64,000 bases of DNA from Verrucomicrobiia bacterium (GCA_035495615.1 DATJFP010000088.1:41763-105762), one strand, 5' to 3'; shown: positions 1 to 51,402, counted from the stretch's first letter. Notes: generated by a model from the letters alone, not told the origin. Made by a program: numbers and translations.

Positions 1-300
1 AGGCGCGCGCGGCCGCGGAGCGCGCGGTTGATGTCGGTCTGCAGCGCGATCTCCCCTTCCCCGAGGGCTCGCAGGAACTGATACGCGTAGGCCATGACGA
101 TGGGATTGTTCTCGTCGACGGCCGCGGGAATCACCAGCTGCCCGCTGCGCAGGAGCGTCGAGATGTGGCGGGCATAAGCGCGGTAGATCGGGCCCGAGTC
201 GAAAAACTGATAGCCGAATTCCCTGGCCAGAGCCCGGGCGGCTGTCGATTTACCGGCCTGCGCGGGACCCGCGATATTGATGCCTTCGGGCGTTTCCAGA
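1..300 (-). other. Cytidylate-kinase-like P-loop NTP-binding module, truncated by the window edge
   Basis: Direct translation: ETPEGINIAGPAQAGKSTAARALAREFGYQFFDSGPIYRAYARHISTLL. Compare Cmk: ItIDGPxGAGKxTxxkxlAxxLgxxxLDSGAiYRxxA. The frame is still open at coordinate 3. Confidence 0.6.
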
Positions 301-3300
301 ATCTGGACCCACTGGTCGAGCGCGGCGTCGCGCTTTTCCTTCGGCAGGAGCTGGAGGAACGCGTTCACTTCGGCGGGCAGGTTCTGCGGCTGGACGCGCA
401 TTTCGGCGCGGCCATAGCGTTCGGCCTTGCGGGAAAGGCGCCAGATCTCCGGCGTTACCGCGCCCGGAGCCAGGTCGCCGATCCGCACCTGGATCGCGCG
501 CGACAGGCGCTGAAGAACGCCGGAATCGGTGTGAAAAACGTATTCGGCGCGGGTGAGCAGCTGCCCGAGGCCTTCCAGCGTCACTTCGCGGAGGTTCAGG
601 GCCTCGGCCGGCATCACCGCGAAATCGCCCAGGCCGTTGTCCGCGGCCCAGCGCAGGTAATTCGCATAAACCGAGAGTTCTTCTTCGGAGGTCTTCGGCG
701 GATCGCGTTTGACGATCCTGGCCAGATCGGCGAGCAGTTCCTGGCGCCGGGCTTCGGCGCTTTGCGGGCCGTGCTGCAGGTTGCGCACCAGCGCGTCTTC
801 GCGGCGGAGCCCGAGGCCGGGCACCACGTCGCGGCGCGAACGTTCGTTCAAGCGTCTCATGCTGCGTTCGATCTCGGGATTGGCCGCGGCGCCTTCCAGG
901 ACTTCGGCGGCGGAAACGCGAGCGATCAAGTGGCCGTCGGCGGATTCCTTGGTGGACGGAAGTCCCGGCACGTTCAAAAGCCCATCGTGCAGGTCTTCGA
1001 TGGCGAACGCCGTGCGCGGCGACTGGACCACGAAAGCGCTGAAATTCACCGAAGCCATGCCCGCGGCCGCGATCGCCTCGACATGCGGCCGCAGTCCGGC
1101 GACATATTCAGGATCGCGGTATTCGATATCCCGAATCACGCCCGCGACCGAGGCGATGTTCTCCGCCAGCGGGCCGCGCGTCTTGTAAATCTCATAGATG
1201 TTGGTCAGGCTGGCCATCGAAGGAAGCGTGACCACCCTTGCGTAATCTTCCGGATTGATCTGCTCGATCAGGCGCCGCATCTGGCGGAGCAGAAGGCGCC
1301 GTTCGGTCGAGGCGCGGCGAAGGGCGATCGAGGCCGTGGACTGCGCGGCTTCGCCCTTGGCGCGTCCCTGCGCTTCCTGGGCGTCCCGGAAAGCTTCTCT
1401 CGCGCGTTCGAGGCGCGGCAGGAGCCCGCGGATCGCGATCTGCGTGGTCATCAGTTTGAGGTGCAGCGAAAGCCGGTCAAGATAGTAAGCCAGGTCGTCG
1501 TCGGAAACCGTATTCTCGAGAAGCGCCTCGGTAACGGAACCGCGCAGCCCGAGCGCGGGCCGGTTTTCCAGCTGAAGCACGAGGCCGGACTGCGTCAGCG
1601 CGTAAAGGATCGCGCGCTGGAACGGCAGGAACGCGGCTTCGGCCTGCTCCTGTCCGAGCTTGGTAGTTTTCATGGTCCATTCGCGTCCGCGCGCGTCCGT
1701 GAAATGCGGGAACAGCGCCAGCACGTCCGGCGTATCCGCGGGCGGGATGCGCGTGATGTTTTTCTGCCAGTACCGCACGAACGACGAGGCGTCGAGCATT
1801 TCCGGAACCTGGTTGCTCGAGGTGTAGCTCACCGCGGCCGCGCCCACCGCCTGCTCGAACAGCTTGACCGTGTCGCGGCCGTAAGCGGCCGAGCGCAGGA
1901 ACGCCATGCCGCGGCGCAGCTCGTCGCCGACCGCGCGCACGACGCGCTGGTAAAGTTCGGGGCCGCGGCGCACGGCGCGCATGAGCGCGATCACGTTTTC
2001 GATGTTGTAGTAGCGGCCGCCCGGCGCTTCCGCGTCTTCGGTCGTGCCCAAAAGCTCCGCGCCCGGCTTGCCGTTCAGCCAATCCGAGTACACGCGGCGG
2101 AAGTCGTCGAGATCGATCTGCTTGATTTCGTAGATGAAACGTTCGACCTGGAAGCGGTAGCGGTCGTCCGCAAGTTCGGCTTCCAGCACGCGGTCGATCG
2201 CGGCCTCGCCGGCATTGACGATGAATTCCGCGAGCGTGATCAGGGAACTCGCCAGGCGCACGTCCGAGCCCGTGATAATCACTTCGTTGTGGCGGAAGAG
2301 GAAGGTGTTGAATTGCTGGCGCTGCTTGGCGGTCATGCCTTGGTAAAGGCGGTCGAGGATCGCGGGGTCCGCCTGCGTGATCGTGATCGGCCCGGGCGCT
2401 TCCGCGGTGCGGGACAAGTCTTCCGCGCGGCGCGAGATGCTGTTGGCGATCAGAAGCTCGCGCAGGTAAGAGCCGAGAAGCTTGGGTTCGCTCGCGCGCC
2501 GGATCTGGTTGGTCCTGCCGTCATAGTCCGTCTTATGGCCCAGGTTGACTTCGCTGTACGGGAAGTGCAGGTGGTACACCATACCTTCGATCGCGGTGCG
2601 GAGAAGCGCGTTCGGATCGAACGTGGTTTGTTCGGGCTGCGCGGTTTCCGAGACTTCGTCGAACACGATCCGCTCAGGCGGCGTCAGGCCTTCCTCTTCG
2701 AACCAGCGCCTCACGTCGTCTTCGGTGAGCGGGCCGGCAACAGGAGCGGCCGGAGCGGGAGCGCCTTCGGCCGCCGGCGTCGCCGGAGCCGGAGCCGCGG
2801 GAACGGGCCCGCGCGTTTTCGACCACTGGAACTGGCTTTCGCCTTTGTACGGGGCGGTCTTGGACGCCACGAGAAATTCTTCGACTTTGGCCGCGCCGCG
2901 TGTCTTGCTGAGCATGAGGGCTTTCAGGAAGCCGGTGATGATACCGCCGGAAACGCTGTCCACGAAGCGGATGTCGGTCTTGGGATCGATGCCCGCGGCC
3001 AGGACTTCCGCATAAATGCCCTCGGCGATCCGGTTGAATTCCGGATCCGTGCGCATGCGTTCTTCGAAATACGGCAGCAGCGCGTCGTAGAAGCGGCGTT
3101 CGCGCACCGCGGCGTCCGCCGTGCCCGCCCGATTCTCGCGTTCCTCGTCCTCGCGGAAGAGGCCGCGCACTTCGCCCACCATGCGTTCCATGACCGGGTA
3201 CGCGTTGCCGAGCTTTTCACGCGACACCTGGATGAGGACGTTTTTCGACTCGTCGAATTCCGCGCCCTGCATCATCTGCTTCGTGATCCAATAGTTTGCG

Positions 3301-6300
3301 CCGTCGCGGGCGAGATAAACATTGACCTTCTTGTCGTCGATCTGATCCACGACGTAAGGCAGCAGGCGGTTGATCGCCACCAGGGCGTGGTAGAAGGTGT
3401 ACTTGCCCCTGTTCGCCGGGTCATAGGCCTCGCGGATCGCGTTCTTCAGGTAAGAGATCCTGGAATCCAGCAGGTAGCGGCGGACGTCTTCGGAAGCGCC
3501 GGTCCCCGCGATTTGAGCTTTGAGCTCCGCGGCTTTCTCATCGAGCTTTTTCAGGATTTCGTTTGCATCGTAGGCTTGAACTTCAGCGGTGGGCTTGTAA
3601 AAGGCATTGAGGCGCATTTCGGGACGCAGGACGGGGCCGGACAAATCGATCTCCTGCGCCGGAGGCCCGCGGCGCGTGAATCTCTTGGCCGCGGCCTGGT
3701 TCACGAACGCGGCATTGGCGCGGCGCAGCGTGCGGTAGTTGTCGAACTGTTCTTCCTGGCTGCTCGGCGCGTGCACGCCGTTGGCGGCCGCGAACGTGGC
3801 GCGGTCCGGCGACTGCCAGGAACGGCCGAGGTCGAGCGTCTTTCTCATACTGCCGGAAATCAGCGCGCGATAGATCAGGCTGCGGAGCGAACCGTACTGC
3901 GTGCCGTACGCCTTTTCGGTCGACGCGGGGCCGACGACGATGGTGCTCAGGAATTCCTGCATGCCCACGGCGTTGTAATCGCGGCCGCCGAGCAGCGCTC
4001 TCGCCTGCTCGTCGGACAGGCCGTAATCTCTCACGATCTGAGCGCGCGTGACGCCGGGTTTCAGCTGCAGCGCGACGGGCTGCAGGCCTTCGTTCAGGTA
4101 GTTCCACAGGAATGCGAGCGCGCGCAGGCGCGGGTCGTCGGGATATCTCGGGCCGGCTTCGCCTGCCGGGCGGTTCGTGGCATGGAGCGTTTCGGTCAGC
4201 CACTCGTAGAACGCGGGGCCGTTACGCTCGTCGATCGCTTCGATCGCGGGCTCGACCGGGATGCCGGTGCCGCGCAGCATTTCGGTGCGAAGGCGCAGTC
4301 CCGAATTGCCCCAGATCGCCATGACGTCGTTCTGGAATTCGGGGCTTGGATTTTCCCTGTCCGTGTGGCCGGTCACGCGTCCGGCAATGATGTCGAAATG
4401 CAGTTCCACCTGGTCGAGGACCTGTTTGCGCACGGGCCAGGGCAAATCGCCTTTCAGGACGAGAAGCAGCGGCAGCGTCGACGGGGCTTCGGTCTTGAGG
4501 GGCTTGGGAGCCGGAGCCGGCACGGTTCCCCGCGTCTTGTCGCCCTTGGTGCCATCGGCCCAGCGCACGCCGTTGCGGTTGTCCAGCGTCTTGACCTGTT
4601 TGAGCGAGGTGGACGCCAGGCCCCGCAGCGTCGGGAAATCCTGGTCCGTACGGAAAGCGGCGCCCACGGAAATCGTGAACTCCGGCATGTTCTGCAGCGG
4701 CTCGGCGCGCAGGTATCTTCCCTGCACCTTGAGTTCCCTGTTCCAGTCTTCCAGCTTGCGGGCGAGCGCGGCCGCGAGCGGCACGTTCTTGCCTTTGTCG
4801 AAAACGATGAGCGCGCGGCCGCGGTTGACCGCGATCGGATAACCCACGGTGGTCTTGATCAAGTCACGCGTCTTGTCGTCGAGCGAGCGGAAATCCTGCG
4901 CGCTCTCGGCAAGGCCGAAACGGCCGTGCGTGCCGAACGAAATTTCGGCGCGCAGCCTTTCGAGGAAACGGGCGGCAAGCGCCTTGTCGAGCGGCCGGTC
5001 ATTCGTGCCGGTGATCAGCAGCCAGGATTCGTCGGGGCCGCGGCGGATCTGGCGGGCCGCGAGCTTGGGACCGTCCGCGTCGCGGAAAACATCTTCTTTC
5101 AGGATGTCGTCGATCGCGCGGTTCATGACGATGCGCACCATGCCGGCGAACTTGTACGTGCGGCCTTCGAAGGCCGTGTGGTACTGCGTGAGGAAGTCGA
5201 TGTCGACGGTGGCCAGCGCGAACTGTGTGTTCTGCTCGATCAGCTGCCCGATGAGGCGTTCGCCGTCGCGCTGCCCCATGGCCGCTTCGGAAGTCGTCAT
5301 GATCGGCGTATCGTCGCTGATTTCGGTGGCGGTTCTCCAGGTCTCGCGCTGTTCCAGCTTCGTGGCATCCAGGAAATAAACCGGGGGCAATTCGGAATAA
5401 CGGCGGTTGCCGGCCGCGTCCCACAAGCCCAGCGTATCGTAGTTTTCCTGCCCGCGGACGAGAATCATTTCGGAGTTGAGGAAGGCATCGGCCACGTCGC
5501 CCGCGATACCGCGGTCCCCGTCGTGGCGCTCGGTGCCGGAAATGTTGCGGAGATCGAGGCCGTAAGTGGCCGGGCCGTGATCGGACAGCACGAAGCGGCC
5601 TTCCAGCTTGTGGCGGCGCAGGTGCGCGAGCGCCGGATGTTCGAGAGCGGTCTCGATGTCGCGGACCGTGAGGGCGCGGCCCACGGGCACGGCTTTGGCC
5701 ACGCCGAAAATCGTCAGGCCCTGGTTGTCGTCGAGCCATTTCTGCACCGCGAGGAGGTCCTGCACGCCTTTAGGATCGCGCGGGTTCACGTTTCCGAAAA
5801 CAAAAGTCGCCTTGGCGAAGCTTGAAAGCTGCGGAATCGCCGTGATCGCCGGAGCCGGCGCGTCCAGCACCGCGGTGATCGCCTGCGCCTGCGCGTTCGC
5901 GGCTTCGTCATGTCCGGCTTCTTTGAGCGCCATTTCCACGATGCGGTTGTGCAGCGTCACGTATTCCGGAGCGCTGAGCGTGGTGCGGAATTCACGGCCG
6001 CCCAGGAAAGGCGGCTTCCACTGGCGCACGCGGGCGGCAAAATCTTTCACGTAAGTGCGCGTCGCTTCGTTCTGGATGCCGCGCGCGTCCAGAGCCGCGT
6101 CGAGGAAATCGTCCATTCTCGCGTCGGCGGTGACAAAATCCGTGATCGGCGCGCCGGGACGATAGTCTCCGGGCACCTGCGTCAGAAGCATCTGGGTCCT
6201 GTTTCCGGGTTCGTAATGCGGGGCGTCCACGCTCTCGACTTTGTCCAGGTTGCCGAGGAAAAGATCCATCATGTCCAGCACGACTTCGGCCAGGGTGCGG

Positions 6301-9300
6301 TCGCGCGTGACCACTTGCTGCCCGCCGCCCGTCGCGGCCTGAGGAGCGCCGTAACCTCCGGCGGCCTGAACGCCGTATCCGCCCGCCGCAGCCGGGGCCC
6401 CGCCTTCCGCCTGGGGCGCGCCGTATCCGGGCGCGGCAGCCTGGCCGCCTGCCTGGGGCTGTGCCCCTGCGGCGGCATAACCGCCCACAGGCGCGCCTTC
6501 TATCGGCTCGGACGTGGCCGCTCCGTAACCGGGAGTGGCGGCCGCGGCTCTCGCGGCCCCCGCCCTGACTTCCCTCTCTATAATAGGAAGGAAGCCCAGC
6601 CTGGAAACTTCATCCGCCAGGTCCAGCGTCGCCTGGTAAGCGACCGCGTCGAGGGACCGGATCTCGCCCAAGTTGGCATTCGGTTCTTTTTCGCGCAGCA
6701 GCTGGATCGCGCGCACGCCGCGCTTGATCTGATCCAGGTTGATCTGGCTGTTGGCCAGGAAACGGCGCGCGCCGTACTTGTCCAAAAGCCGGTCCGCGGC
6801 TTCGAACGATTCGGCGTAAAGATAAAGGTCTTCCACCAGGTGCCGGAGGCCGGCCGCGGGCTTGGCGCCTTCGAAGAAGGTCTTGAGTTTGCGCCCGCCC
6901 CTGCCGAGGTCGCCTTCGATCTCGAAATCAAATTGCAGCATGAAGCGCAGGATTCTGAGCGCCAGGCGCGGGTTCAGGTCCGCATGGCCCGCATCCGGAT
7001 AATTGACCCGCAGGACGCCTTCGCGGAGATCTTCGCGGCCCGAGAAGCTGTCGTGGATAATGTAGTCGCTTCCTTCTTTCCACAGCGCAAGACGGTTGAT
7101 GGTCAGTTCCGGCACTTCGGTAAGGGCCCCGACGTTGGGCGGCGTTTCATGGACGCGGCCCGTCGTGGCGTCGATGACGCCCGTCACGTGGATGGGCAGC
7201 CGGCGCCCGTCCGTGTGGACCATGACCGCGCGGCCTTCGAGCACTTCCTGCGCGGTGAGGTCCTGCGAAATCGTGCCGTCGAGCGCGCGGCCCTTGAATT
7301 TCTGGGCCAGGACGCCTGCCGCGGGCATGGCCGCGTCAAACAGCAGCCGCTCGCGGAACTGGTTGATGAGGTAAGCGCGGAAGGCCAGCATCACGATCTT
7401 GTCCGCGTCTTCGCGCGTCAGCGGGCTCTTCGCCTGACGCTGGGATTCGTAGACGTCGCGGATCTGCCGGCGCAGCTTGAGATTGAAGGCCGGGTCCGAG
7501 GCCTTGGCCGCTTCATAGGCTTCTTTGTAACGCTTGTAGTCCGGATACTCTTCCAGGATTTTTTCGTACAGGCGCTGCTGGTCTTCCTTGATCTCGACGT
7601 GATTGGCGTGCTTGATCTCGCCGATGAGCTTGGCATCCTGCGGAAGTTCTTTCAGCCAGGCCAGCTCCGTCTCGCGGGCATTGAGCCGGGCGACGGCTGC
7701 GTCGTCGAGGCGGACCTGGAGCAGCACGTCGACTTCGTCGCTGCGCTTTTCCTGCCCTCCGAGCTCGTTACGCACGATGCCGCCGAACGCCACGACCGCG
7801 GGATTGTTGACCCCGTCGAGGAACGCGCGGAGCGCCCCGTTCTGCGTGAGCTGGTTCGGGGCCAGAGTCTCGCGAAGCTCCGCCCTTTGCTGCACGGCCG
7901 TCACGGCCGCGGCCAGCCGCGGGTTGTTCAATTCGGGCGCGTCACGGAGAAGCGGAACCACGTGATGGCGGACGAAAATGCCGAGTTCCCGGAGCGCGAC
8001 CGGCTTGAACCGGCGCGCGCCGCTGAGGGCATCTTCCACGACCGTAAGCGCCGCGTTTGCGAAATAAGCGTCGCCCACGGCGGCGCGGACGTCGTTGATG
8101 CTTTGCACCGGCGCGTCTGGAATAATTTCCGTGCTGAGGCTCGAGAAAGGCGTGAGGCCGCTTTCGATCCGCGACACCACATCGCGGAACGCTTCCCGAT
8201 CTTGGAGCGGCTTCAGCGCCCGCGTCAGCCTCTCGCTTCCGAGCTCCGGGCGGCTCTGGATCAGTTTTTTCAGATGTTTCACGATGAAGCTCAGCTTCGC
8301 GTCTGGAAGATTGTGGAGCCGCGGCTCTTCGAGCATGAGCTGCACCGTCTGCATAAAGGCCAGGTCGCCCATGTCCTTGCGGAAATCATCCACGAATTTC
8401 CAGGCCGCGTCATACTCAAAGTCAGGATAAAAGGAGCGGTCCCGGATGCCGTCCGCCAGCTTTTTCGCGGCCGCGGCAAGATGCGTGTCCGGCGTTTCGG
8501 CCGTGAGCTCGGCCGGCACGGGCTTGTCCGCGAGATCGGGACGCCGCGCAAGCAAGGGACGCAGGTGTTCTTCTTCGAGCCTCTGGTACAGCACGGGAGC
8601 AAAGCTCTTGACCCGGTCTTCGAGAATGGCGTCCAGCGCGCCGCGGAAATAAGCGTCGCCGGCAAGGATGGCGGCCAGCGCGGCGTGATAGGTTTCGTCG
8701 CCCAGGTCTTTTCCGACGGCCTCGATGCGTTCTCTGCGGACCTCCGGGCCCAAGTCCCCCGGCGCACCAAAGCCGGTGCCGGCCACCGCGTCGAAGATCC
8801 GCGTGATCGCGCGTTCGAGCGGCGTCTTGCCGTAGCGCGAGCCTTCTTCGTAGACGCGGCGGAAATTCGTGACGGCGTTGTCAAGCCTGTCGTTCAGCAG
8901 CATGGGCCGGCGGGTAAGCATGCGGCGAACATGGAGATTAAGCAATTCAGCCACGATGCGCGGCGGCAGATCGTAGTGGCCGGCTTCTTCCACGATCGCG
9001 ATTACGGCTTCGCGGAAGAGCACGTCTTTGGCCTCGCGGCGGACGCTCTCGATCATTTGTTCGCGCATCAAGTCACGGTCCTGGGCTGCCTGCACCGCGA
9101 TCAGGATTTTGCGCACCGTCGCATAAACCGGCGGCAGTTCGGGCGCCGCGGGCGCTTTTTCCGGAACCTTTTCGAGTTTCGACGCGGCCGGGACCTTCTT
9201 CACGAAACCCTCGTAAAACCGCTGGAACGTCTCGGGGAACTTCTCGCCTTTTCCGAAATTGCGCAGCAGGCCTCCGATGATCGGAACGCCCGCGTATTCT

Positions 9301-36300: not shown

Positions 36301-39300
36301 GCGAAACCTCCGATGCGCTGACGCTGCCGTTCTTCGGGCAGCCGCGCCACGGCCGCATCGACGTCCGCTTCCGTGCTCTGTTCGTTGGCGGCGAGCGCGT
36401 TCATGGCCGCCTGCGCGTCCCGGATCAGTCTCGAATCTTCTTCTTCACGTTCCCGCAGGAAATCGCGGCGCGCCAAAGCCGCTTGCCGCAATCCTTCAAC
36501 TTCGGGCGATTTGGCGTTCTTCAGCCGGTCTTCCTGGGCGCGGATGTCGTTGACGTCTTCCGCGGCGGCGATTCGTTCCCGGATGTTCTGCACCACGGCA
36601 ACGCGCTTGGCCTCGATCTGCGGCCTCGCTCCTGTTTTCAAATCCTCATAAGGTACGGCTTCTGCCCGCTCGGCATAAGATTCGATGACTCCGAGCGGCA
36701 CGCCGTCTACGCCAAAGCCCGTCACGTCGCCGACCAGCCGTTCCATTGTTCGCTGGTAGTAATCGTAAATCTGGGCTTCCATCTGAGTCCGCTTGGCCTC
36801 GAGCCGCGGGAACACGAAAAGAAGGAGCGCGTGAAGGCTGGGGGTCGATTCGGTTTGAGCCAGGAGGTTCTTTTTCGCGCGCGCGTAGGCGGTTTGTTCC
36901 GCCGCGGCTCCGGCCTCCTGGTATTCTTTCAGCGCGCGGACGAATTCGTAGGAACTCTTCTGGTCCAGGGGCGGCATTTCCGTGGAAGTCAGCATGGCCG
37001 CGGCTTCGGGCACGATCTGGTCCGGCTTGTCGAGCTGTGCCGCCATGGCCGAGATGAGCCGCGATTCGTACTCGGCGAGGGCGGCTTCAGTCGTGCTGAG
37101 GCGGGCGCCGATGCGCGATTGAAGTTCCGAGACAAGAGGCGCGGGACTGTCGGCCGTTCCGGCAAGCGCCGCGGCTTCCTGGCCCAGGCCCTGGAGGCTC
37201 TGGTAATTTTCGTGCGGATCGCCGCGGGTCTGCTCGAGACGCTGGGCAATGTCGCGGAACTTGATCGTGTTATCGACCTGCGGCGTACGAACTTCGCCGG
37301 GCAGCACTTCGAAAAAGGCAATGACCGCCAGGATGGCGTCGAAATTCGCGGCCACATCCCCCATGTGGGGCTGCAGCGCGCCTTGCAGGAGGGTTTGTCC
37401 GCGCGCGGCAATGATGCCCGGAATCTGGGGCCTGTCCGCTTCGGAGGCCGCGCCGCGCTGCGCGTACGTGTCTACCAGGATCTGCGGGCTCATGGCCTGC
37501 GCCGTCGTGGTCTGGATCAGTTGAAACGCCCGGGCCAGCTTCAGGACGTTCAGGGCGTCGTTATTTTCAGGAGAAAATTTCGTGGTGTCCCACGTGATGG
37601 CGGCCAGACGCTCGAAGGAGTCCGCGCGGTTGATTTGCTTGGCCAGCCGGCCGAAGCGGGATTTTTCCGTGCCGCGCCATTTGATCACTCCCCAAATGGC
37701 TCCGGCTCCGGCCGCGAGACCCGCTGCGATTAAAGCGGGCCCGGTAAGATTGGGCGCGTTGACCGTGACGCCTCCTGCTTGTTCCGCCAAATACTGATAA
37801 AGTTCGTAAACGCCGTAAACCGCCACGCCGGCGCCGGTGAGAACTCCCAGGCCGAGCAGAATGCGGTTTCTCCAGACGCGGGCCGTCTCTTCCCGTCTTT
37901 CCAGTTCGGTCTTTCTCGCGCGCGCGCCGTCCTGCTCCGCCGCGGGCAGATCATTGATCACAGCTTCGGTAATATCGGCCGACCGCCGGGCTGCTGCGAC
38001 GGCTGCGCGCGCATCCTCGATCTTCTTGAGAGCGTCGCGCTTTTCCCGGGCCTGGTCCCGCTCGCCGTCGTTTTCGAGATCCGCGAGCACCGCGTCGGTA
38101 ATCTGCGCCGACTGCGTGGCCGTGGCGACCGTACTTCTCGCGGCTGCAAGGCGCGCCGCCTGGATCGCCGTCCTCTTGCCTTCCGCGACTCCGGCGAGCC
38201 TCGCCGCTTCCGTCGTCTGAGCTCCTTCCAGACGCGCCGTCTGCGCGGCCACCTCTTCGATCGTGCTGGCGTCGGTCAATGCCGTCAACTTGCCTTCGAT
38301 GTCCGCCACGATTTGCGTGACTTTGCCGCGGATTTCATCTTCCACCGCCCCGCGAGCGGCCCCGTCTTTGATGCCGGCCGCCAGAGGCAGAAGAGCTTCG
38401 GCGTCGCTTATTTTCGCGGCAGCGGCATCGATCTGTCCGAGCTGTGTCCGGATATCGCGCGCTTTATCCTCGTCACCCCGCAGCCGGTCGCGAATCTGTT
38501 CCACGGCGGCATCCGCCTGGTCTTTCACCTGGATGCGGAGACGTTCCTCCAGACCGTTCACAATGGCGGCGAGCTGATCTTCCGTGGCCGTTTCCAAATC
38601 CAGGGCTCCGATCGCGCGCTTGGCCTCAGCGACCGCGCGGCCGTCCGCTTCGATTCTCGCCTCGATGGCTGCGCGTTTGGCTTCCGCCAATTCCCGCAGC
38701 CGCGCTGCTTCGGGAGTCTTGGCATCTTCGAGGCGTGCGGTCTGCGTCACCACCGATTCGGGAGTGTTGAGTTCGGTGAGGGCATTCAATTTGCTTTCGA
38801 TGTCGGCGACGATCTGCCCGACTTTGCCGTTGATCTGGCTTTCGACACTGCCGCGAAGCGTCGCGTTCTGGATCTGCGCGGCGCGCGTCAGCAGGGCTTC
38901 CGCGTTTTCGATCGTGGCGCTTTCAGGCTGAACCTGCCCGAGATCCGAAAGGATGGCGCCGGCTTTTTCGTTGTCGCTGCGGCCGCGCTCGCGGATCGCG
39001 GCAATCTTGGCATCCGCTTCGTCGCGCACATGATCACGCAGGCGGGCCGGCAGCCCGCTGCGAATGGCTTCAACGGCGTCTTCCGCCGCCGTGTTCACAT
39101 CAATGTCGTCGATCTGGCGCTTGGCTTCGACTATAGCCCGGGCATCGGCCCCGAGCCTGTCGCTGATCGCCTGTTTTTTCTGTCCCGCCAGATCGCGCAG
39201 GCGTCCGGCATCGGCAGCGGCGGCGCCTTCGAGCCGCGCAGCCTGGGCATCCGGGTCAGCCAGCGCATTCAGTTCCGTCATGGCGTTCAACTTGCCTTCG

Positions 39301-42300
39301 ATGTCCGCGACAATCGCGGTAACGCGGGCGTTGATTTCGCCCTCGATCGCGCTCCTCAAGGTTTCTCCCTTGATCTGTTTCGCCCGCGGCAACAAGGCTT
39401 CGGCGGCGTGCACGTTGGCATCGCCCGGAAGGAGGGCCGCAAGATCGCCGCGGATCGCTACTGCTTTTTCATCGTCGCTTCTCAAACGTTCGCGGATGGC
39501 CGAGAGCGCCGCCGCGACATCTTCCGCAATCTGGTCACGCACGCGTTCGGGCACGCGCGTCTCGATGGCTTGGACCTGGGCAGGCGTCGCGGTTTCGGGA
39601 TCGAGCTGGCCGAGGTCCTGTTTGGCCGCCGTGACGGCTTCGCGGTCCGCGGCGATGCGCCTCGTGATGGCGTCCATCTTGCCGCGCGCCAGATCGCGAA
39701 GGCCTGCGGCTTCCGAGGTAAGCGCGTCTTCGAGGCGCTGGACCTGCGTGTCGACTTCGGCCGCCGCGCTCAACTCGGTCAAGGCTTCCAGTTTTCCGCG
39801 GATGTTTTGGACGATCCCGCCCACTTTCGCGTTGATTTCATCCCGCACGGTTTCTCTCAGAGCGGGGTTCTTGATGTCCGCGGTCTCCGTCAAAAGGGCT
39901 TCGGCTTCTTTGACAGCGGCCGTTTCAACCGGCAGCAGTCCAAGCCGCTCACGAATGCTTTGCGCTTTTTGTCCGTCGGTTTCGATGCGCTGGCGGATCG
40001 CAAGCAGGGCCGCCTGCGCTTCGGTGCTCACCTGGCCGCGCAGACGTTCAGCAAGACCGTTCACGACGGCTTCGACATCGGTGGCCGCGGCTTCATTTAT
40101 ATTAAGGCTCGTGATCGCCTGCTTCGCCTGGCTTACGGCGAGCTCGTCCGCCCGGATCCTTCTCTCGATGGCGGCCGATTTTTCTTCCGCAAGCGTGCGC
40201 AGCCGGCCCGCTTCGGACGTGGCCGCGTCTTCCAGCCTCGGCGTAATCGCCGTCACGCTGGCGGGCTCGTTCTGGTCCGTCACGGCATTCAATTTCCCTT
40301 CGATGTCCGCAACGATCGCTTTGACTTTCTGATTGATCTCGCCTTCGACCGCGGAGCGCAGCGTTCCGTCTTTGATCTGCCCGGCGCGGGTCAGCAGCGC
40401 TTCCGCGTCTTTGATCGCCGCCGTATTGGCAATCGCTCCGAGGTCACCCCGGATGGCCGCCGCCTTTTCGGTATCGCCCTGCGTGCGTTCGCGAATCGTG
40501 GCGGCCGCGGCATCCGCTTCGGCCTTGACCTGATCACGCACCCGTTCGGGCACGCGATTGCGAAGGGCTTCTACGTCGTCCACCGCGGCCGTGTCCAGAT
40601 TGAGCGCCGCGATCGCCTGCTTGGCTTCGCGCACGGCGCGTTCGTCCGCGTCGATCCGGTTTTGAATGGCCCTGGATTTCTGCTCCGCCAACTCCCGCAG
40701 CCGGGCCGCTTCCGGCGTCACCGCGCCTTCAAGCCGCGACGTCTGGGCCGTCACTTCTTGGGCCGTGCTGAGTTCCGTCAAGGGCGTCAGCTTCGTTTCG
40801 ATGTCCGCGGCGATCTGGCCGGTCTTGGCATTGATCTCGCCTTCCACGGCCGGACGCAGCACCGCATCTTTGATCTGCGCCGCGCGGGGAAGCAGCGCTT
40901 CCGAATCCGTGAGCTTGGCCGTCGCGGCGGCGATACCCTGCAGGTCCGAACGAATCGCCGCGGCTTTTTCTCCGTCGCCCCGCGTGCGGTCGCGGATCGT
41001 GGCAATGGCCGCGTCCGCTTCGGTCTTCACCTGCTCGCGCACCCGCTGGGGCACCCCATTGCGGAGGGCTTCCACTTCGTCCACCGTGGCCGTGTCCAGA
41101 TTGAGCGCCGCGATCGCCTGCCTGGCGCCGCTCACTGCGAGCGTGTCGGATTCGCCGCGGCCGGAGATGGCCTGAGACTTTTGGCCTGCCAGCTCCCGCA
41201 GCCGGGCCGCTTCCGGCGTCACCGCGCCTTCGAGCCGCGCCGTCTGGGCCGTCACCTGGTCGGCCGTGCTTTCGTCCGTCAAGGCGTTCAACTTTCCTTC
41301 GATGTCCGCGACGATCCGCGTCACGACCGCGTTGATTTCGCCTTCCACGGTCGTCCGCGCGGTCTGGTCCTGAATCTTTGCGGCGCGCTCGAGCAGCGCT
41401 TCCGCGTCTTTGATGTTCGCGGCCGCCGGCACGATCCGTCCGAGATCCGCGGCAAGGGGCCCGCGAAGCGCCGTGTCTTCTTCGCCCCGCTTTAAGTCAT
41501 CCCGCCGCCGTTGAGCCCCTGCCAAAATCACGTCGTAGGCGCTTCTTTCATCCCCGGCGAACGTCACCCCCGTCACAAGCCGTTCCGCTTCATCAAGTTT
41601 CTGCTGCGCCTCGGCCGCTGTGTCCGCAGCCTGGGCTGCGGCAAGCAATCCGACCAGCGAAACAACATTGCCTCGGCGCGTTACCTGCTCTTGTTCGGCT
41701 CGCTTCAAGTCGCGCTGCTTTACGCGCAGGGCTTCGAGGGCTTCGGTATAACGGGCTTCTTCCTGGCCGGCAAATGTGACCTGGCTGCGCAGTGCCGTGA
41801 CGGTCGCGATCGTGGCTTCCGCCTGCGTCGACGAGGTCGGCTCCACGGCCAAAAGAGCCATCAGGTGCCGGACTTTTCCCGAACGTTCGGCTTCCGCATC
41901 TTCGTCCGTCTTGAGACGCTGCGCGGCTTCGCGTGCAAGCCCGAGCGCATCGGTGTACTGCCGCTGTTCATTCCCCTGAAATTGGACGCGGCCTGCAAGG
42001 TCTTCGGCTTCTCGGATCATTTCCTCGGCTTCGGATGCCGTTGCGGCGCGCTGCGCGCCTGTCAGCAGGCTCTGGATGCGGCGCACCGAGGCTTCGCGGT
42101 CCGCGACAAGTGCCCGATGCTCGGCGATGAGTCCGGCCAGCGCGCGCGTGCGAGTGCTTTCAGCGGCGCCTTCCAGCCTTTTTTCCTGGAGGTCGAGGAC
42201 GCCTGTGTCATAAGTGCTCGTGACCTGGGTCCGGATATTGGATTCGATGGCAAGCGCGGTTTGTTCGACTTCCCCTTCGAGCGTCGTGCGCAGGCCTTGA

Positions 42301-45300
42301 TTGCGGACGCGCGCCACGTCCTTCAGCACGGCTTCCGCTTCCGCCAGCGTGGCCGTCGCCGCTTTCACATTCAAATTCGCGAGCGCGTCACGTACGGTCC
42401 TGGCCAGGGTTTCTTCCTGCGCCACGGCTTCCTGGATGGCTTTCTTTTTCTGTCCCGCCAGCGCCTGGAGCCACGGCTGGGCCGCGGGATTGAAACGCCT
42501 TTCCTGCGCCTCGACCGCGCTGACGGCCGCGGTTTCGTCCATCGCGGTCAGCGTTTCCTGGATGTTGTCAATGAGGCTGCCGATCACGCGGCCGACTTCG
42601 CCCTGCCACGCCTGACGCACGCCTTTGTTCTGGATCTGATTGACCCGCTGATAAAGCATTTCCGCGTCGCTGATCTGGGCAGTCGTAAGGTCGAGGCCCT
42701 CGATCGCTTCCATCACGCCTACGGCAATCTCATCGTCTTTGCGGATCCTGTCGCGGATGGCCTGGCGCACGGTCTCGGCTTCTGCGGCAATGCGCGTCTG
42801 GAGAGGTTCCCGCAAAGTCGCGGCCACGGCGTTCACGTCTTCTTCCTTCGCGGTCTTCGGATCGATCTTGCTCAGTTTCCCCAGAACGTCCTGCACGCTC
42901 GCCGCGTCTTCAGTTTCCTGCAGGGCCATGAGATCCAGCACTTCCACGACCTGTTTGTCCCCGCGCACGGCGTCTTGGAGCCGCAGCGGAAGCGCAGTGA
43001 TCGCGGCTTCCACGTCCTGGGAGGCCGCTTGCCCGATCACCATGCTCGTGATGGCGGCGATCGTCTGCGTTTTCATCGCTTCGTCTTTCTGCTCACGGGC
43101 CGTGATCGCGCGGGTCATCTCCTCCACCTTGCTGCTCAGCCTTTTGAGGACGTCTTCCGGAAGGCGGAGGGCCATATCTTCGGGAAGACGGAACATGACG
43201 GCGTTGACCTGAGGCACGGTAGAGGTCTCGACCGGAAGAGCGCCGATCTCGGCAACCAATCCGTCGATAAAGGCGGAGTCGCTCGCCGCCTGGAAACGAT
43301 CATGGACCGCCTTGACGCCGGCCGTGAGATCCGTGCGCAGATTTCCGCGGTAGCCGCGGGTCCGTTCGCTCTGAGCGGCAAGCTCGTCTTCATTTTTGAC
43401 TCCGGCCAGACGCTCGACGACGTTCTGCGCCACCTTCTCCTGCTGCGCGGCCGCGGCCTGTTCGATCTGGTCCCGGTAAGCGCGGCCAGGCGCAAATCCC
43501 AGCAGCCGCAGCCCCTGTTGGACAAAAGCCGAGACGTCGCGCACCGACACCTCGCGCGCGTCGATTTCCCCGATTTGCCGGACAAGGTCTTCCACGGCAC
43601 TATCCATTCTCTGCCGGCTCCGCTGTTCGCGGCTTTCGGCAAGGTCACGCTGTCTTTTCTGTTCACGGGCCTGACGCGCCTGGTCGACCGGCACGGCTTC
43701 GAGTTGTTCGACCGCGGTTTCGCGGGCCTGTTCTTCCGGCTGTGGCACGGGCTTGGGCTGTTCTTCGGCCACTTCGGCCGCGGGAACTGACTGGACCACG
43801 AGCGAATACAGATGCGCAATGTCTTTGTATTCCTGGAGGACGAGCTTGATGACTTCCGTACGCGTCTGCACGGCCATCTCGAAAAGCGCCTGCTTTCTGC
43901 CTTGCGCGGTTTCATCCGCATCGGTCGTCGACTGCTGTTTCAGCGCCTCGAAAAGCGCGCGGATGAGCGCCGGGAGCTGGGCGAGTTTTTCCTGGACGGC
44001 CAGAAGCTGGCGCGCGGTCTGTTCGCTGGACAATTCTTCTTCGCTGGCAAGGCGTAAGGTTTCCAGGGTGTCGCGAAGGCTGTGGAGTCCCTGCACGAAG
44101 TTCGCGCCGTCCTGATAGCCTTCGCTCAGCTTCGAATAAATATCGCGGTAGGCCACACCGATGGCCTGGACCGCGTTGTCTTGGGCCGCCCGCAATTTCT
44201 CATCCAGGCTTCCGAGCGCTTCATCGAGCTGCTGGATGCGTTCGGTGAAACGCACGCGCAGCGCCTCGGCCCGGGTCTGGATTTCAGTGCCTTCATAATA
44301 AGATTCCCGTGACAAGGCAGCCAGCTGCTCCATGACCACGTCCCGAAGCCGCCACAGGGTGTACTGTTCGTTTTCGATGACCCCGGCCGCTTCACGCACC
44401 AGCGGGAATTGCCCCGCGGGCTGCTGCAGCTGGGCCTCAAGCTCTGATATATAGGAAGCGGTGTGCCCGAGCTCCTGGTCCGTTTCGCGTTCGATTGTGT
44501 TCAAACGGCGCGTCAGCACGCCCATGTTATATTCCGCGATTTGCCGGATCTTCTCGTCCGCGGCGGCGCGGACGCGGTCTTTGAGATTCGCGGGTAGGAG
44601 ATCGACCAGCCGGTTGACTTCCGCGGGCGTGCCGACCGGAACCGAGACTTTCGTCTCGATGGCGGCCGTGACTTTTTGCACCTGCAGGTCGTCGAGCTTG
44701 CCCAGGGAAGCGGCGCCGCGCGCAATAACCGCGGCAAGCGCCTGCCTTCTGGATTTCAAAAATTCAATTTCGCTTCGCACGCCGGGATCCACGGCGTCCG
44801 GATTTTTTCCGAAGGCATCTACCTTCGCGTCGAACTGCGCGAGCGTCCTATCCGCTTCCTCCCGGATTTTCCCGATCTGGAGCCGGATCGTGTCGAAGAT
44901 GCTAGTCGTTTCTTCGGTGAGGTTCGGGACGTTCATGAGGCTTTCGGCGACTTCGAGGCTGCGGATCAGCCTCGTCTCTTCCGTTTCGTAGAAAGCGCGG
45001 GCTGCGGTGACTTCGCCCTTCAAGGCCAAAACGCGTTTTTCCGTGAGTTGGATTTTACGCGTCAGTTCCCGGATCCCGGCCTGGGCGTCTTCGGTCACCC
45101 TCTTCAGGGAATCGTCGAGCTCGCGGAGAAGGTCTTCGGGTTCTTCCGTCGTCCTCAATTCCGCGCGCAGGCCGACAGCAAGCTGGGGCATCTGGCGGGC
45201 ATTCCCATTCAAGCTTGCGAGAAGCTGGCTGCGTCCTTCGCTTCCGAGACCCGCAAAATAGGCATCGGGCCGGCCGAGCAGTTCGCCGATCAGGGCCAGG

Positions 45301-48300
45301 ATTTTTCGGACCGCTCCCGCCGACGGAGTCTGCTTGAGTCCCGCCAGCGTCTGTCCCGCTTCCGCGATCGCTTTCTTGGCATCGACCGCCGCGGGCTGCT
45401 GCACGGGTTGGCGGGCCCGCTCGAGCGCACGCGCGATGCCGGGAAGATCGCGGATTTCAGGAGGCAGGGCTTCGAGAGTCTTGGCAATTTCGGCGACTGG
45501 TTCCGGGACCATCTCCGGATCGAGCTCGGGCGTCAGCGAAACATCGAGGGCATGCTGGATATTATTGTAGAGCAGATTCCCTTCTGTCCCCGTGGCCTTG
45601 TCTTCGTAAGAGAGCTTCTTAATAATGTAGTCGCGCAGGTCCGCCATTGCGAGAGCGATCGTGCCGGCCTGAATCTGGCGCGCGGCAAACAGAATCGCGT
45701 GATGGTCATACGTAATGCCCGTCGTATCCGAAACCTTGGGCATGTTCGCGGCGCGGTCTTCTTTCCAAAGGTCCTCATTGCTCATGGCCGCTTCCGGGAA
45801 GGCCTTGTTATGCTGGCGCAGCGATGCTTCCTCAAGCAAATCCAGGACGGCGTTCCGCTGCTGGCCGCCGAGCGCGTTCCAAGCCGCTTCGTCCGACCGG
45901 CGGATCAATTCGATCTGGTCGCGCAGCGCCTGCTGCAACTGCCCGGCCGCCTCTTCCCGCTGGATTTGGGAAGTCCACGCCTGCGGCAATTTATCGAGGA
46001 TCCAACGCTGTACCTGGACCGAATAATCCGTGACTTTCTTTTCCGTGGCCGTGCGCGGAACGGTGAGGCTCATCGGGTCTCCCGGCTGGACTTGCAGCCG
46101 GTCCAGATGCATCAGGAAATGAATGAGCGCGTTCTTTTCCTGCTTCGTCCACGACGTAAGCTCGGAGTTCCACCGCTGAAGCCCCATGAACCGGTTTCTC
46201 GAGAGATCGTAGCGGCGCTTTTCGATTTCCGGACGCGGGCGCTCCACAGCGCCTTCCTGGAACCGCAATTCGCCTTTCAACGCGGCCTGGCCGAGGTCGG
46301 TAACGACGACGCTGATCTGGCCGGGCTGCACCTTGCCGAGCGCTTCCGTGACGGCCGGATCCCTGACCAAGTGCGCATCCACGGGCCCGGAATAATAGTT
46401 GCTGTCGCCGAGCTCCAGCCGGTTCAAACGGTCGGGCTGTTTGAAAAGCCCGCGGGCTTCCGAATCCTGGCTGCGAAGCACCTTCGCAAAAAGGCGCAGC
46501 GCCTGTGTCTTGTCTTCGCCCGTCTGCCACAAAAACTGGTTCGGACCTTTCCGCTCCAGCACGCCGCCGAAACGGTTGACGATCGCGAGGAGACCCTGCT
46601 GGTATTCCGCAGGAATTTCCGCGGCGATTTTCTTACGCATTTCCTCGAGCGCCTGCTCAGGAGTATTGCTTTCGAAGATGCTTTCGACGATCGTCAGGGT
46701 CATGAGGAAAAAGGCGTGCGCGTATTCAGGATCGCGGGCGATGAAATCGGCGGCTTCCTGGCGGAGACCCAGGCTCGCCGCATTCAGAAATTCGCGCGCC
46801 TTGGGCGATTTTTCGATGACCATGTGCCAGGCCGCGAGCTGGAAGCGCGGGTCGCTCAGGCTTTGCTGCTGGGGCGGGAGGAAAGTCTCCACCAGCCGCG
46901 TTTCGAGCGGCATCGGCTTCTGGCTGAGGGCGTCCACGTAAAGCTGCGTTTCCTTGGTGTCGTCGATCTGGCCGTGGATCCGCGGCGCGATCACAAGGAA
47001 AGAATAATCGTTTTCCTTGAGATAGGCCTCGATGCCGGGCGTATGGAAACCACCGGTAATGATCGCCATGATCTGCTGCTTCCCGGATTCCATTTCCCCG
47101 ACCGCTCTCTCGATCAGGATCTTGTCGCGTTTGAGAGCTGCGGAATAATAACGCTCCACGCGGCCAAGATCCTGATCAAGGATCTCCAAAAGGGACGGCA
47201 ATCCATTGGAGAACTGATGTTGCTTTAAGAGCGGTACGAGGAAATTACGGAATGTCTCTGCCTTGAATTCGTCGCGGTATGTGTAGAAAAAGTCTGCGTC
47301 CTGCTTGGTCAGGGTGAAATTGAACATCTTCTGGTAAATCTCGAAAATGCGGAACAGCCGGTCCAGCTGCACTTCCTCTTCGTTGCGGAACAGCTTGTTC
47401 TTGATGTCCCGCTCGAGCGCCTCGATCTCGCTGAAGATCGCGACGTCGATCGAATCGTAGAGCCTCATATATTTAAGGTAGCGCAGGACCTCGTCGTACT
47501 TCTGGGCCAGCTCTTCCTGCCCGGCCCCCTGCGTCGACTGCATGTTCTGGATTTCGACCTGGAGATAGCCGTAATAGTCCGCGCGCTTCATCTTCTTCAT
47601 GCGGAACTGGACCGTGTTGGTCAGAAACTCGGAGAGTTTTTCACGCGTGAGGACGTTTTTCAGGTCGTTGATCAGGTCTTCGATGCTTTTTTCGGCTTTG
47701 TCGAAATCGATTTCTTTTTCGAGATCGATGAGCGAGAGAAGCGAGTGCATGCCCGGATAATCGTAAAGGGCGATGTTTTCTTTGCGGGCCGTTTCCACGA
47801 GATGGCGGACGTAACTCACGAGTTCGTTGCCGCCGGACTGGAAGGCCTGCCGGTAATGCAGCATGTCCCGCAGATCATCGGAGAAAACGAACCGGGAAAC
47901 ATCGTCCATCAGCTTTCCGAGGTCCGCCAGAACTTTTTCGTCTCGGTCTTTGTATTGCAGGGCGTCGAGATAAGCGCGCCTGTTTTCTTCATAGATCTGG
48001 CGGTCTTCCACGCCGTACAGGTTCAGTTCCGGCCGGTCGACGATCGCGAGGTATTCGGGCCCCGTCAAACGGGCTTCTTTCAAAAAGTAATCCGCGACAT
48101 TTTTGCGGGCTTCTTTGTTCGGAAAAAACGAAAAGAGTTCGGTGAAGAGTTCGCCCTCGGCGCCTTCCAGGTTGATCAGTTTAAGACCGTAATTTTTGGC
48201 GAAATAATCAAGGATGCCCGCGATGTTGCGCTGGGCCTCTTCATTTGCATGAGCGTCCTGGATGTGGATGACGATGCGGTCGCGGGAACCCTGGAAGTTT

Positions 48301-48530: not shown

Positions 48531-48704
48531 GAGGATTTGCCGTCCCTATGTTTTGCTGGCCAAATTGACGTGCTAACTTACCGACTACTTAAAAAATTGA
48601 TTTATATTGTTATATTTAAACTATATATCAAAGTTTTTAAACTCACAATAGTATAGACCGAAATAATTGTAAGTTAAATACTTGATAAAAGTTTTTATGA
48701 AGTA

Positions 48705-48733
48705 AGTATAGCCGCCACTTTCTAAATTGTCAA
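48705..48733 (-). promoter_or_regulatory. Candidate sigma70-type promoter for the giant gene
   Basis: The minus strand reads TTGACA (48733-48728), then a 17-nt spacer, then TATACT (48710-48705). It sits in a ~265-bp AT-rich intergenic region, about 175 nt upstream of ATG 48530. Confidence 0.4.
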
Positions 48734-48779: not shown

Positions 48780-48795
48780 CCCCTACAATAAGGGG
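48780..48795 (-). terminator. Short hairpin directly after the stop of the response-regulator gene; weak intrinsic-terminator candidate
   Basis: The minus strand reads AAA-CCCCT-TATTGT-AGGGG-CTTTCCTTAAAA. The stem is 5 bp, the loop 6 nt, and the U-tract is poor. Confidence 0.3.
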
Positions 48796-48796
48796 T

Positions 48797-49228
48797 TTAT
48801 TCTTCGGGATCGTCTTCCGGGGTCTTCTTCGGGGCGAGGTTATCTTCGATGCATTTGACCAGGTCCTTGGTACTGACCGGCTTAGAAAGGGCAGGTTTAA
48901 TGGTAAACGGCCGCCCCCCTACCACTCCGCCGAAGGCTTCGCTTTGCCCCTTGCCCACGGTAGCGGTAAGAAAAACGATGGGGGTGTTATTGATCTTTTC
49001 CGTTTCTCGGATTTCGATGGCCACCTCCGTACCACGCTTGTCCGGCATAATCACGTCCAGAAGAATGAGGTCGGGTTTGAAGTCTTTGGCCGCCTGCAGC
49101 CCCTGGGCGCCTTTGGTCTCCACGCGGACCTCGAACTTTCCGAGGGCTTCCAGGTTTTTTTTGATCATGCTTGCGAATTTTTCTTCATCGTCGATAACAA
49201 GGATTTTTTTCTTTGCCGGGTCTGCCAT
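48797..49228 (-). CDS. Single-domain response regulator (CheY-like receiver)
   Basis: 143 aa. KILVIDDEE...PDLILLDVIMPDKRG...PIVFLTA...IKP gives a canonical acidic pocket, phospho-acceptor Asp, Thr and Lys. AGGAGG lies 4 nt upstream of the ATG. Confidence 0.9.
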   Translation of the reverse strand: MADPAKKKILVIDDEEKFASMIKKNLEALGKFEVRVETKGAQGLQAAKDFKPDLILLDVIMPDKRGTEVAIEIRETEKINNTPIVFLTATVGKGQSEAFGGVVGGRPFTIKPALSKPVSTKDLVKCIEDNLAPKKTPEDDPEE

Positions 49229-49239
49229 GATTCCTCCTG

Positions 49240-50802: not shown

Positions 50803-50877
50803 GACGACACACCGGTCTTCGGGAATAAACCAGATTCAGGAAGGAAATGTTGGGGCGCGGGACGTAGGAAGCGAGGA

Positions 50878-51326: not shown

Positions 51327-51402
51327 TGGTGGACCTGAGGAGGATCGAACTCCTGACCTCATCGTTGCGAACGATGCGCTCTCCCAGCTGAGCTACAGGC
51401 CC
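51327..51402 (-). tRNA. tRNA-Ala(CGC): tRNA-Ala, anticodon CGC, with genomically encoded CCA
   Basis: The minus strand reads GGGCCTGTAGCTCAGCTGGGAGAGCGCATCGTTCGCAACGATGAGGTCAGGAGTTCGATCCTCCTCAGGTCCACCA. It folds by hand into a 76-nt cloverleaf with stems of 7, 4, 5 and 5 bp, anticodon loop TTCGCAA, T-loop TTCGATC, and the G3:U70 alanine identity pair. Confidence 0.95.

Follow-up and report, generated by a model that had tools for sequence, protein, structure and literature searches.

The 64,000-nucleotide stretch of DNA analyzed here (Verrucomicrobiia bacterium, GCA_035495615.1, DATJFP010000088.1:41763-105762; hereafter the window) is occupied from position 1 to 48530 (1..48530) by a single minus-strand open reading frame (ORF), and all features described below lie on that strand unless stated otherwise. 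Translation of the reverse complement of this segment, from the ATG at 48530 to base 3, gave 16,176 sense codons and no stop, which bears out the first-pass annotation of an ORF of at least 48.5 kb (at least 16,176 codons). As the frame is still open at the window edge and runs past coordinate 1, the segment represents the 5' part of an uninterrupted ORF of at least 10,000 codons. The probability is about 0.85 that this 5' segment of 48.5 kb stems from one intact giant gene on the chromosome of an uncultured Omnitrophota bacterium, that the gene has its own promoter, and that it belongs to a widespread, phylum-restricted family of giant membrane proteins.

The start of the ORF was equally well defined. 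An in-frame TAG is located exactly five codons 5' of ATG 48530 (...T*GRQIL-M), just as the first-pass annotation had it, and the open stretch comprises 16,181 codons. Since none of the five intervening codons (GGA CGG CAA ATC CTC) is ATG, GTG, or TTG, position 48530 is the first possible start, and homologues of the giant protein align from residue 1, in agreement with this assignment. The probability of encountering no stop across 16,176 codons, computed from base composition, is ~1e-194. Guanine-plus-cytosine (GC) contents at the first, second, and third codon positions (GC1/GC2/GC3) were ~0.68/0.43/0.79 per 1000-codon block throughout the ORF, compared to 0.59/0.37/0.66 in the flanking genes. 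As this coding-type pattern was found in all blocks, the whole stretch reads as coding in the minus frame. The ORF is missing from the supplied ORF track because the lister omits ORFs running off the source, and the earlier deduction that this frame, being without listed ORFs, has no stop in the window holds.

The plus strand also carries long ORFs, and these could in principle be the real genes, with the minus frame open by chance in GC-rich DNA. Indeed, the codon-aligned plus frame, which starts at multiples of 3, contains few stops (196) and ORFs of 1,300 to 1,900 amino acids (aa), the longest being 1,940 aa. However, all homology (the head family described below, PP2C, cytidylate kinase, and collinear Omnitrophota giants) is on the minus strand, and the codon-position pattern, which had been proposed as a check, favors the minus frame (GC3 of 0.79 with GC2 of 0.43) and not the plus strand. 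Furthermore, the plus-strand ORFs are accounted for by the scarcity of TTA, CTA, and TCA on the sense strand (8, 1, and 12 occurrences, respectively, in the giant ORF), so that their earlier interpretation as antisense by-products holds. The idea of plus-strand genes, to which we assign virtually no probability, is thus already refuted by homology and codon-position data.

As the sequence evidently comes from a metagenome assembly, the 48.5-kb ORF might also be a chimera, a mis-join, or a collapse of several shorter genes. The GC content of the giant gene (0.62 to 0.67) is unlike that of its flanks (0.50 to 0.55), internal repeats of 167 aa are present, and a neighboring gene was found only on short public contigs (2.6 to 2.8 kb), all of which would be in keeping with an artifact. 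However, unrelated pieces would not hold one frame stop-free over this distance, codon-position GC is continuous along the ORF, and GC content climbs gradually from the conserved head without a sharp junction. Repeat copies are only 51 to 68% identical at the nucleotide level, with a longest exact internal repeat of 39 nucleotides (nt), and are therefore too divergent for repeat collapse to be expected. Start and upstream synteny also agree with those of relatives that likewise bear giant ORFs at this place. An assembly artifact is, overall, a very improbable explanation of the giant ORF.

Homology searches placed the gene in a family of similar loci. With the first 1000 aa as the query, 49 protein matches were obtained, and those with names were assigned to 'Candidatus Omnitrophica/Omnitrophota', save for the generic labels 'PVC group bacterium' (P0030), 'bacterium', and 'Candidatus Theseobacter exili'. 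When one genome per GTDB species was scanned with a pattern, 277 loci encoding the N-terminal region (first ~600 aa) were detected; every named locus among the 80 listed was from Omnitrophota, with a best identity of 64%. One cluster member among the homologues of head and body was labeled Dehalococcoidia. The window gene thus appears to be encoded in an Omnitrophota genome, a placement made via homology and not via marker phylogeny.

In 68 of 82 loci, no stop interrupted the head-initiated ORF before the fetched DNA ended, which corresponds to at least 3,900 aa where 10 kb was available. At one comparison locus (L001), the gene had been called in pieces, but the break is a frameshift across which homology to the window protein continues. 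The fragments at a second locus (L002) are successive open frames overlapping at every break, like the L001 pattern; no homology of L002 to the window protein was found beyond the head. Together with the absence of stops and the homology along the window protein, the open ORFs of the relatives agree with the first-pass view of one continuous minus-strand gene with a C terminus beyond coordinate 1. In several Omnitrophota genomes, head-initiated giant ORFs occur as two or three paralogues located on separate contigs (L020/L046/L059 in one metagenome-assembled genome [MAG], JAUYMS01; L039/L068, L054/L072, L065/L080, L035/L073, and L034/L048).

The first-pass annotation had mentioned very large ORFs from Omnitrophota, which pointed in the right direction, as the named homologues are members of this phylum. 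Its implication that proteins above 10,000 aa are rarities did not hold, since ORFs of at least 10 thousand amino acids (kaa) have been catalogued in the thousands in Omnitrophota. In 2023, West-Roberts et al. reported lengths reaching 85,804 aa (bioRxiv 10.1101/2023.11.21.568195). More recently, Nielsen and Lui counted 3,650 proteins of at least 10 kaa in their own samples and 5,761 when clustered with public genomes, with at least one such giant in 42.9% of high-quality MAGs and in 93.8% of complete Omnitrophota genomes; the longest had 147,155 aa, and 15% of the catalogued giants were without any domain match (2026, bioRxiv 10.64898/2026.06.07.730766). An ORF of 16 kaa or longer in Omnitrophota is therefore expected rather than exceptional. 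The gene described here is one further example of a catalogued phenomenon and leaves knowledge of gene-size limits unchanged.

A putative near-consensus sigma-70-type promoter (TTGACA-17-TATACT, 48705..48733) with 11 of 12 consensus matches is located ~170 nt 5' of the start codon and is followed by an AT-rich leader, in which no Rfam match was found. A TTGAC...TATATT pair is also kept in the leaders of relatives. Upstream of it, a terminator-like hairpin (48780..48794) follows the preceding response-regulator gene, separating that gene from the promoter of the giant gene. Inside the giant ORF, promoter-like and terminator-like sites were no commoner than expected from shuffled sequence.

Immediately 5' of the start codon, the leader carries the motif GGACGGCAA (48537..48545, 7 to 15 nt 5' of the ATG), which overlaps a Shine-Dalgarno-like GGGA. 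This 9-mer was invariant in all 12 aligned leaders, and 35 of 74 relatives had it no more than 20 nt from the start, compared to ~1 occurrence per 50 kb elsewhere. It was conserved although GC content varies widely among the relatives; the proteins of relatives with the motif at their start are ~53 to 67% identical. A mini-hairpin around the motif that would sequester the Shine-Dalgarno sequence was considered and rejected, as the apparent covariation (AGGA...TCC versus GGGA...CCC) reflects a shifted register, with relatedness of the sequences as a further confounder.

The genes upstream of the giant gene in the window encode, in order, LepA, LepB, a family 1 glycosyl hydrolase (GH1), a SPOR protein, GNAT, a second SPOR protein, PilZ, YajQ, a second PilZ, a patatin with a cyclic nucleoside monophosphate (cNMP)-binding domain, an acyl-CoA-synthetase-like protein, a hydrolase, tRNA-Ala, and a response regulator, a histidine kinase, and another response regulator. 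The order SPOR-PilZ-YajQ-PilZ-patatin-AMP-binding-hydrolase is common to the window, L001, and L002. The giant gene is directly preceded (48797-51243) by two response-regulator genes and, between them, the gene for a PAS histidine kinase that itself carries a receiver domain. Related genes at L002 encode a hydrolase fused to a receiver, a histidine kinase, and a response regulator; L001 lacks such a set. No mobile-element genes were found in the 15-kb upstream flank, with its lepA-lepB housekeeping context, and the giant gene appears, from this gene order, to sit in a conserved chromosomal locus and not in an obvious island. The neighborhood is also rich in cyclic-nucleotide signaling genes, namely, the two PilZ genes, YajQ, and the cNMP-binding patatin. 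These two-component and cyclic-nucleotide genes may have a role in regulating the giant gene. A single RNA gene occurs in the window, tRNA-Ala(CGC) (51327-51402), with the hydrolase gene on one side and the two-component genes on the other, upstream of an ORF that is very rich in alanine (12.8%).

The giant protein begins with an N-terminal signal anchor or signal peptide (aa 12-30, WLRTVALLVALIFIVHDVV; 48441..48497; hydropathy, 2.04), which is preceded by RRAK and followed by VWA/DGGG, with three Lys/Arg residues on its N-flank and one on its C-flank. Next to it lies a conserved head (aa ~60-600; 46731..48353), for which predicted fold and conserved residues indicate a TIKI/EreA/ChaN/TraB-type alpha/beta core, interrupted by ~300 aa of helical sequence. 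The AlphaFold model of the head, built from 46 sequences, was confident (predicted local distance difference test [pLDDT], 84.3; predicted template modeling score [pTM], 0.79), and it contains the central parallel beta-sheet known from EreA/B/C, ChaN, HopBA1, TraB, and RRSP. Across the 46 sequences, D92, H94, and E122 were at least 90% conserved, while R468 and H496 were invariant. The resulting signature (D92-x-H94, E122 [+28], R468, H496 [+28]) consists of residues at the ends of predicted strands or in the preceding helix.

This arrangement resembles the superfamily signature described for RRSP (E3900-x-H3902, E3930, R4001, and H4030; PMC6254334). The residue order is the same, and the distance from H to E is 28 in both proteins, while that from R to H is 29 in RRSP and 28 in the head. 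In contrast to other members of the TIKI superfamily, the head has Asp in place of the first Glu, and its core is split by the ~300-aa insertion. Further likenesses are to TraB/PrgY, in that the head adjoins a membrane anchor, and to RRSP, which is also a module of a giant (MARTX) toxin. Judging from the predicted model, the head probably adopts the fold of the TIKI/EreA/ChaN/TraB hydrolase superfamily. D92, H94, E122, R468, and H496 could then form a putative catalytic site, acting on an ester or a peptide, or the head could be inactive. The head thus provides a family marker and a testable catalytic hypothesis.

More distant homologues of the head (25 to 31% identity) are separate proteins of 1,000 to 1,450 aa. 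At one locus of a PVC-group MAG (L083, positions 1-24230; GCA_024231215.1, JAAEQR010000072.1), a stand-alone 1,409-aa head homologue directly follows a C39-peptidase giant of at least 7,815 aa, and it is itself followed by five unannotated same-strand genes of 529 to 978 aa. This locus may represent either the fragments of one giant gene or an operon in which such modules are encoded separately.

The body of the protein was annotated by searching 18 overlapping 1000-aa tiles against Pfam and NCBIfam and the whole protein against the PDB with phmmer. More than 95% of the protein was without a Pfam, NCBIfam, or PDB sequence match, and the profile search recommended in the first-pass annotation thus yielded a PP2C-like domain and the start of a cytidylate kinase but left nearly all residues unassigned. 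The domain combination, described earlier as unfamiliar, is indeed not a textbook one in the Pfam scans. Among the features previously sampled by hand, the signal anchor, transmembrane (TM) helices, PP2C motifs, and P-loop GPAQAGKST (the N terminus of the cytidylate-kinase-like domain) were recovered. The nucleotidyltransferase motifs were not, the closest match being a 17-bit CCA-nucleotidyltransferase hint against a cutoff of 290. This and other subthreshold hints (ARMT1-like, MPGP-like, and BagB) were not relied on.

The body includes two arrays of a helical 167-aa repeat with ~20 copies in total. Array 1 (aa 1604-3539; 37914..43721) contains ~14 copies, of which seven core copies are 46 to 63% identical at the protein level, and array 2 (aa 3979-4774; 34209..36596) contains ~6 more divergent ones. 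A two-unit model was all-helical with a pLDDT of 94.6; no specific structural relative and no Pfam match were found for the repeat. These repeats escaped Tandem Repeats Finder, owing to strong divergence between copies and a period (501 nt) at the limit of the program. The 167-aa helical unit represents a confidently predicted new repeat.

A TM hairpin (aa 3557-3575 and 3598-3616; 37683..37862), defined by hydropathy, directly follows array 1. After array 2, profiles and motifs indicate a PP2C-like Ser/Thr phosphatase domain (aa ~4780-5090; 33261..34193). It matched Pfam PP2C_2 with 26.2 bits (cutoff, 24) at profile positions 9-100 of 209 only and NCBIfam Stp1 with an E value of 3.5e-8, and weak alignments were obtained with PppA/PstP. 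The C-terminal half was unmatched by profiles; the motifs NNED, ADGAGG, SDGG, and DDDV were recognized by eye. Further TM segments occur at aa 7122 and aa 8941-9414, the latter within a second family-conserved module (aa ~8684-9420; 20271..22481) with ~four TM helices, which was detected by tblastn (aa ~8,690-9,340) at 11 loci with 26 to 41% identity. This module is also present in P0013 (40% identity) and P0006, and in relatives it is located 300 to 1,000 aa past the head.

The region of aa ~10,006-15,470 (2121..18515) showed collinear identity to other large Omnitrophota proteins in BLAST searches (25 to 29% to P0061 [7,321 aa], P0054 [6,825 aa], and P0052 [4,150 aa]), of which P0052 carries HAD, full Cmk, APH, and HD domains. 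It includes a dense membrane block with ~18 TM helices predicted by hydropathy (aa 11,354-12,755; 10266..14471). For aa 11,950-12,800, only 12 weak matches, in patches of 60 to 170 aa, emerged when 1.84 billion representative proteins were searched exhaustively with HMMER. A weak ARMT1/DUF89-like (damage-control phosphatase) hint at aa 14,257-14,367 (5430..5762) stayed below the cutoff (E value, 5e-4; 19.7 bits versus 25). At the window edge, which cuts it, a cytidylate-kinase-like P-loop domain begins (aa 16,084-16,176, INIAGPAQAGKST...; 3..281); within the window it covers profile positions 1-37 of 211 of Pfam Cytidylate_kin (36.5 bits), with further matches to TIGR00017 and PDB entry 1q3t.

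In a comparison with 80 relatives, of each of which ~3,900 aa were visible, the window protein was matched in two regions only, the head and the second module. As these two lie 300 to 1,000 aa apart in relatives, the window protein has ~8,100 extra residues between them, which include both repeat arrays and the PP2C-like domain. The gene thus appears from these alignments to be a mosaic, in which the head and membrane module of the family are combined with a large lineage-specific insertion and with a C-terminal region distantly common to other giants. A word-index search with the second module, alone or as an alignment, gave no matches and was uninformative, since P0013, which carries the module, is in the same database; such searches appear to be swamped by the Ala/Leu-rich composition. 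Likewise, the word-index search with the head returned no protein larger than 1,724 aa, and null results on Ala/Leu-rich giant segments do not signify absence. Overall, the gene offers a well-defined entry point into otherwise dark sequence.

Cysteine was absent from the visible protein (0 of 16,176 residues). The 16 flanking genes encode 29 cysteines in 4,568 residues (0.63%), from which ~103 would be expected in the giant protein. Similarly, the head-initiated ORFs of relatives contained 130 cysteines in 204,184 residues (0.06%), compared to 693 in 110,770 residues (0.63%) for the ORFs of their own upstream flanks. Cysteine depletion is therefore tenfold and family-wide, and no mention of it was found in the giant-protein literature that was searched. 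Near-total exclusion of cysteine would fit a chain that is threaded or exported unfolded or that resides in an extracytoplasmic setting. Selection against pre-stop codons was rejected as a sufficient cause of both the high GC content and the lack of cysteine: pre-stop codons decreased from 0.298 to 0.235, yet TCG rises and Glu and Gln are abundant. Cysteine exclusion and the initiation motif are simple, checkable signatures, which may bear on the way in which proteins exceeding 16,000 residues are synthesized and inserted by cells of ~0.2 to 0.3 µm.

The window protein is multi-pass in character. It would enter the cytoplasmic membrane at several points, with very large loops alternating between the two sides. 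It may represent an envelope-anchored scaffold that bears the hydrolase-like head near its N-terminal anchor, followed by helical spacer arrays and by phospho- or nucleotide-handling modules, with the 167-aa repeat arrays as spacer or scaffold. Such a scaffold might take part in host or prey contact and envelope remodeling, as has been proposed for Omnitrophota giants, in keeping with the host- or prey-associated lifestyle suggested for the phylum.

One gene need not mean one protein, and the product could be a polyprotein that is cut into several polypeptides, possibly by the TIKI-like head, or be translated from internal starts. The TIKI superfamily includes endopeptidases, such as RRSP and Tiki (PMC6254334), and self-cleavage by N-terminal C39/S8 peptidases has been raised for other giants by West-Roberts et al. 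(bioRxiv 10.1101/2023.11.21.568195). The occurrence of distant head homologues as separate proteins and the mosaic distribution of modules between relatives are also consistent with processing. However, internal promoters are not enriched, no cleavage motif was identified, and the head might just as well be an esterase or inactive. We regard a polyprotein as a live but less probable alternative.

A bolder interpretation is that head-first giants, with at least 277 reference loci, constitute a distinct and previously undescribed major family of Omnitrophota giant membrane proteins, in which a TIKI-like head by the anchor, cysteine exclusion, and GGACGGCAA reflect a dedicated biogenesis route. 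We consider this unlikely as a whole. If true, biogenesis could, for example, combine strict control of initiation with threading of the chain in an unfolded state and processing by the head itself, and the window copy, with its 8 kaa of extra GC-rich helical-repeat sequence, would represent a recent large scaffold expansion. The head assignment, cysteine exclusion, GC anomaly, and initiation motif are modest testable leads in any case.

Several observations weigh against the reading of the segment as part of an intact giant membrane-protein gene with a TIKI-like head and an envelope role. The support for a single intact gene is at the level of sequence. Public metagenome contigs provided no extension past coordinate 1, whether searched with an exact 70-mer or with the C-terminal 600 aa, and the C terminus and total length are unseen. 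Topology is ambiguous by simple rules, as the charges around the second and third TM segments conflict with those around the first. Foldseek gave no significant match for the head (best E value, 0.098; superfamily members only at probabilities of 0.14 to 0.21), and sequence profiles (Pfam, NCBIfam, and a profile search of the PDB; including TraB_PrgY_gumN, Erythro_esteras, and Cofac_haem_bdg) detected neither TIKI nor TraB nor EreA. SecA_DEAD, C39, glycosyl-hydrolase, and dockerin domains were not found in the visible protein with Pfam. Finally, the gene exceeded its flanks by 0.10 in GC content, compared to an excess that averaged 0.019 and peaked at 0.056 among 47 relatives, and part of the gene could be of foreign origin.

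The GC anomaly raises the question of a hybrid origin, in which promoter and head would be native, with most of the body (aa ~600 onward) stemming from recombination with a higher-GC Omnitrophota donor or from recent expansion within the lineage. The excess is outside the range of the 47 relatives, and the head region has a flank-like GC content (0.51 to 0.57), from which values rise gradually into the body (0.62 to 0.67; GC3 of 0.73 to 0.86, compared to 0.60 to 0.74 in the flanking genes). The ~8,100 aa between head and second module are missing from the first ~3,900 aa of the 80 relatives, and mobile elements near giant loci have been noted in the literature. However, the 15-kb upstream flank is free of mobile-element genes, and no donor was identified. 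Moreover, the same trend, although weaker, was seen in relatives (positive in 38 of 47), suggesting a property of the gene class over transfer. The GC excess is in part a matter of amino acid composition (giant protein versus flanks: Ala, 12.8% versus 8.2%; Arg, 8.8% versus 6.2%; Lys, 3.7% versus 8.0%) and in part of GC3. A hybrid gene seems improbable.

With respect to known systems, the closest comparison is to the other Omnitrophota giants (West-Roberts 2023; Nielsen and Lui 2026; and the 39,678-aa Velamenicoccus archaeovorus protein), which share with the window protein the phylum, an ORF of more than 10 kaa, an N-terminal signal or anchor, and many TM helices. A signal peptide and/or TM helices are present in 94% of catalogued Omnitrophota giants, and the window protein has both its N-terminal anchor and ~25 to 30 TM segments, as counted by hydropathy, a heuristic. 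Like the window protein, these giants largely resist annotation, apart from enzyme-like domains scattered along the chain; they contain internal repeats whose copies have drifted apart in nucleotide sequence, and, as in the present family, their ORFs are fragmented or frameshifted in short-read MAGs.

There are also clear differences. The archaeovorin type has glycosyltransferase (GT), glycosyl-hydrolase (GH), methyltransferase, NUDIX, C39/S8, and usually SecA_DEAD domains, whereas Pfam and NCBIfam scans of the 16,176 visible residues, which exclude the C-terminal part beyond the window, found no GT/GH, methyltransferase, C39/S8, NUDIX, or SecA_DEAD domains. Dockerin/TSP3 matches (PF00404 and PF18884) were likewise absent from the visible protein, which sets it apart from dockerin-type giants. 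The published model of prey cell-wall degradation rests on SecA_DEAD, C39, GH, dockerin, the type II secretion system (T2SS), and pili (bioRxiv 10.1101/2023.11.21.568195). In contrast, the flanks of the window gene contain no T2SS or pilus genes, and their sole carbohydrate-active enzyme is the GH1, 13 kb upstream. As neither the visible part nor the 15-kb flank contains the domains and neighbors of this model, its transfer to the window protein is weak. Conversely, the TIKI-like head, cysteine exclusion, and conserved initiation motif are unmentioned in West-Roberts 2023 and in Nielsen and Lui 2026.

A second comparison is to the giant surface adhesins and RTX proteins. These type I secretion system (T1SS) substrates, such as the 36.8-kaa ORF of Chlorobium chlorochromatii, MARTX, and ice-binding or biofilm adhesins, have very long ORFs, tandem-repeat extenders, and few or no cysteines, consistent with unfolded secretion. 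The window protein shares with them a very long single ORF, long tandem repeats, and few or no cysteines. However, no RTX, Ig-like, cadherin, or hemagglutinin repeats were found by Pfam in its visible part, which speaks against an RTX/T1SS assignment. Unlike the repeats of the adhesins, those of the window protein are all-helical 167-aa units, and its ~25 to 30 TM helices speak for an integral membrane protein and against a secreted adhesin.

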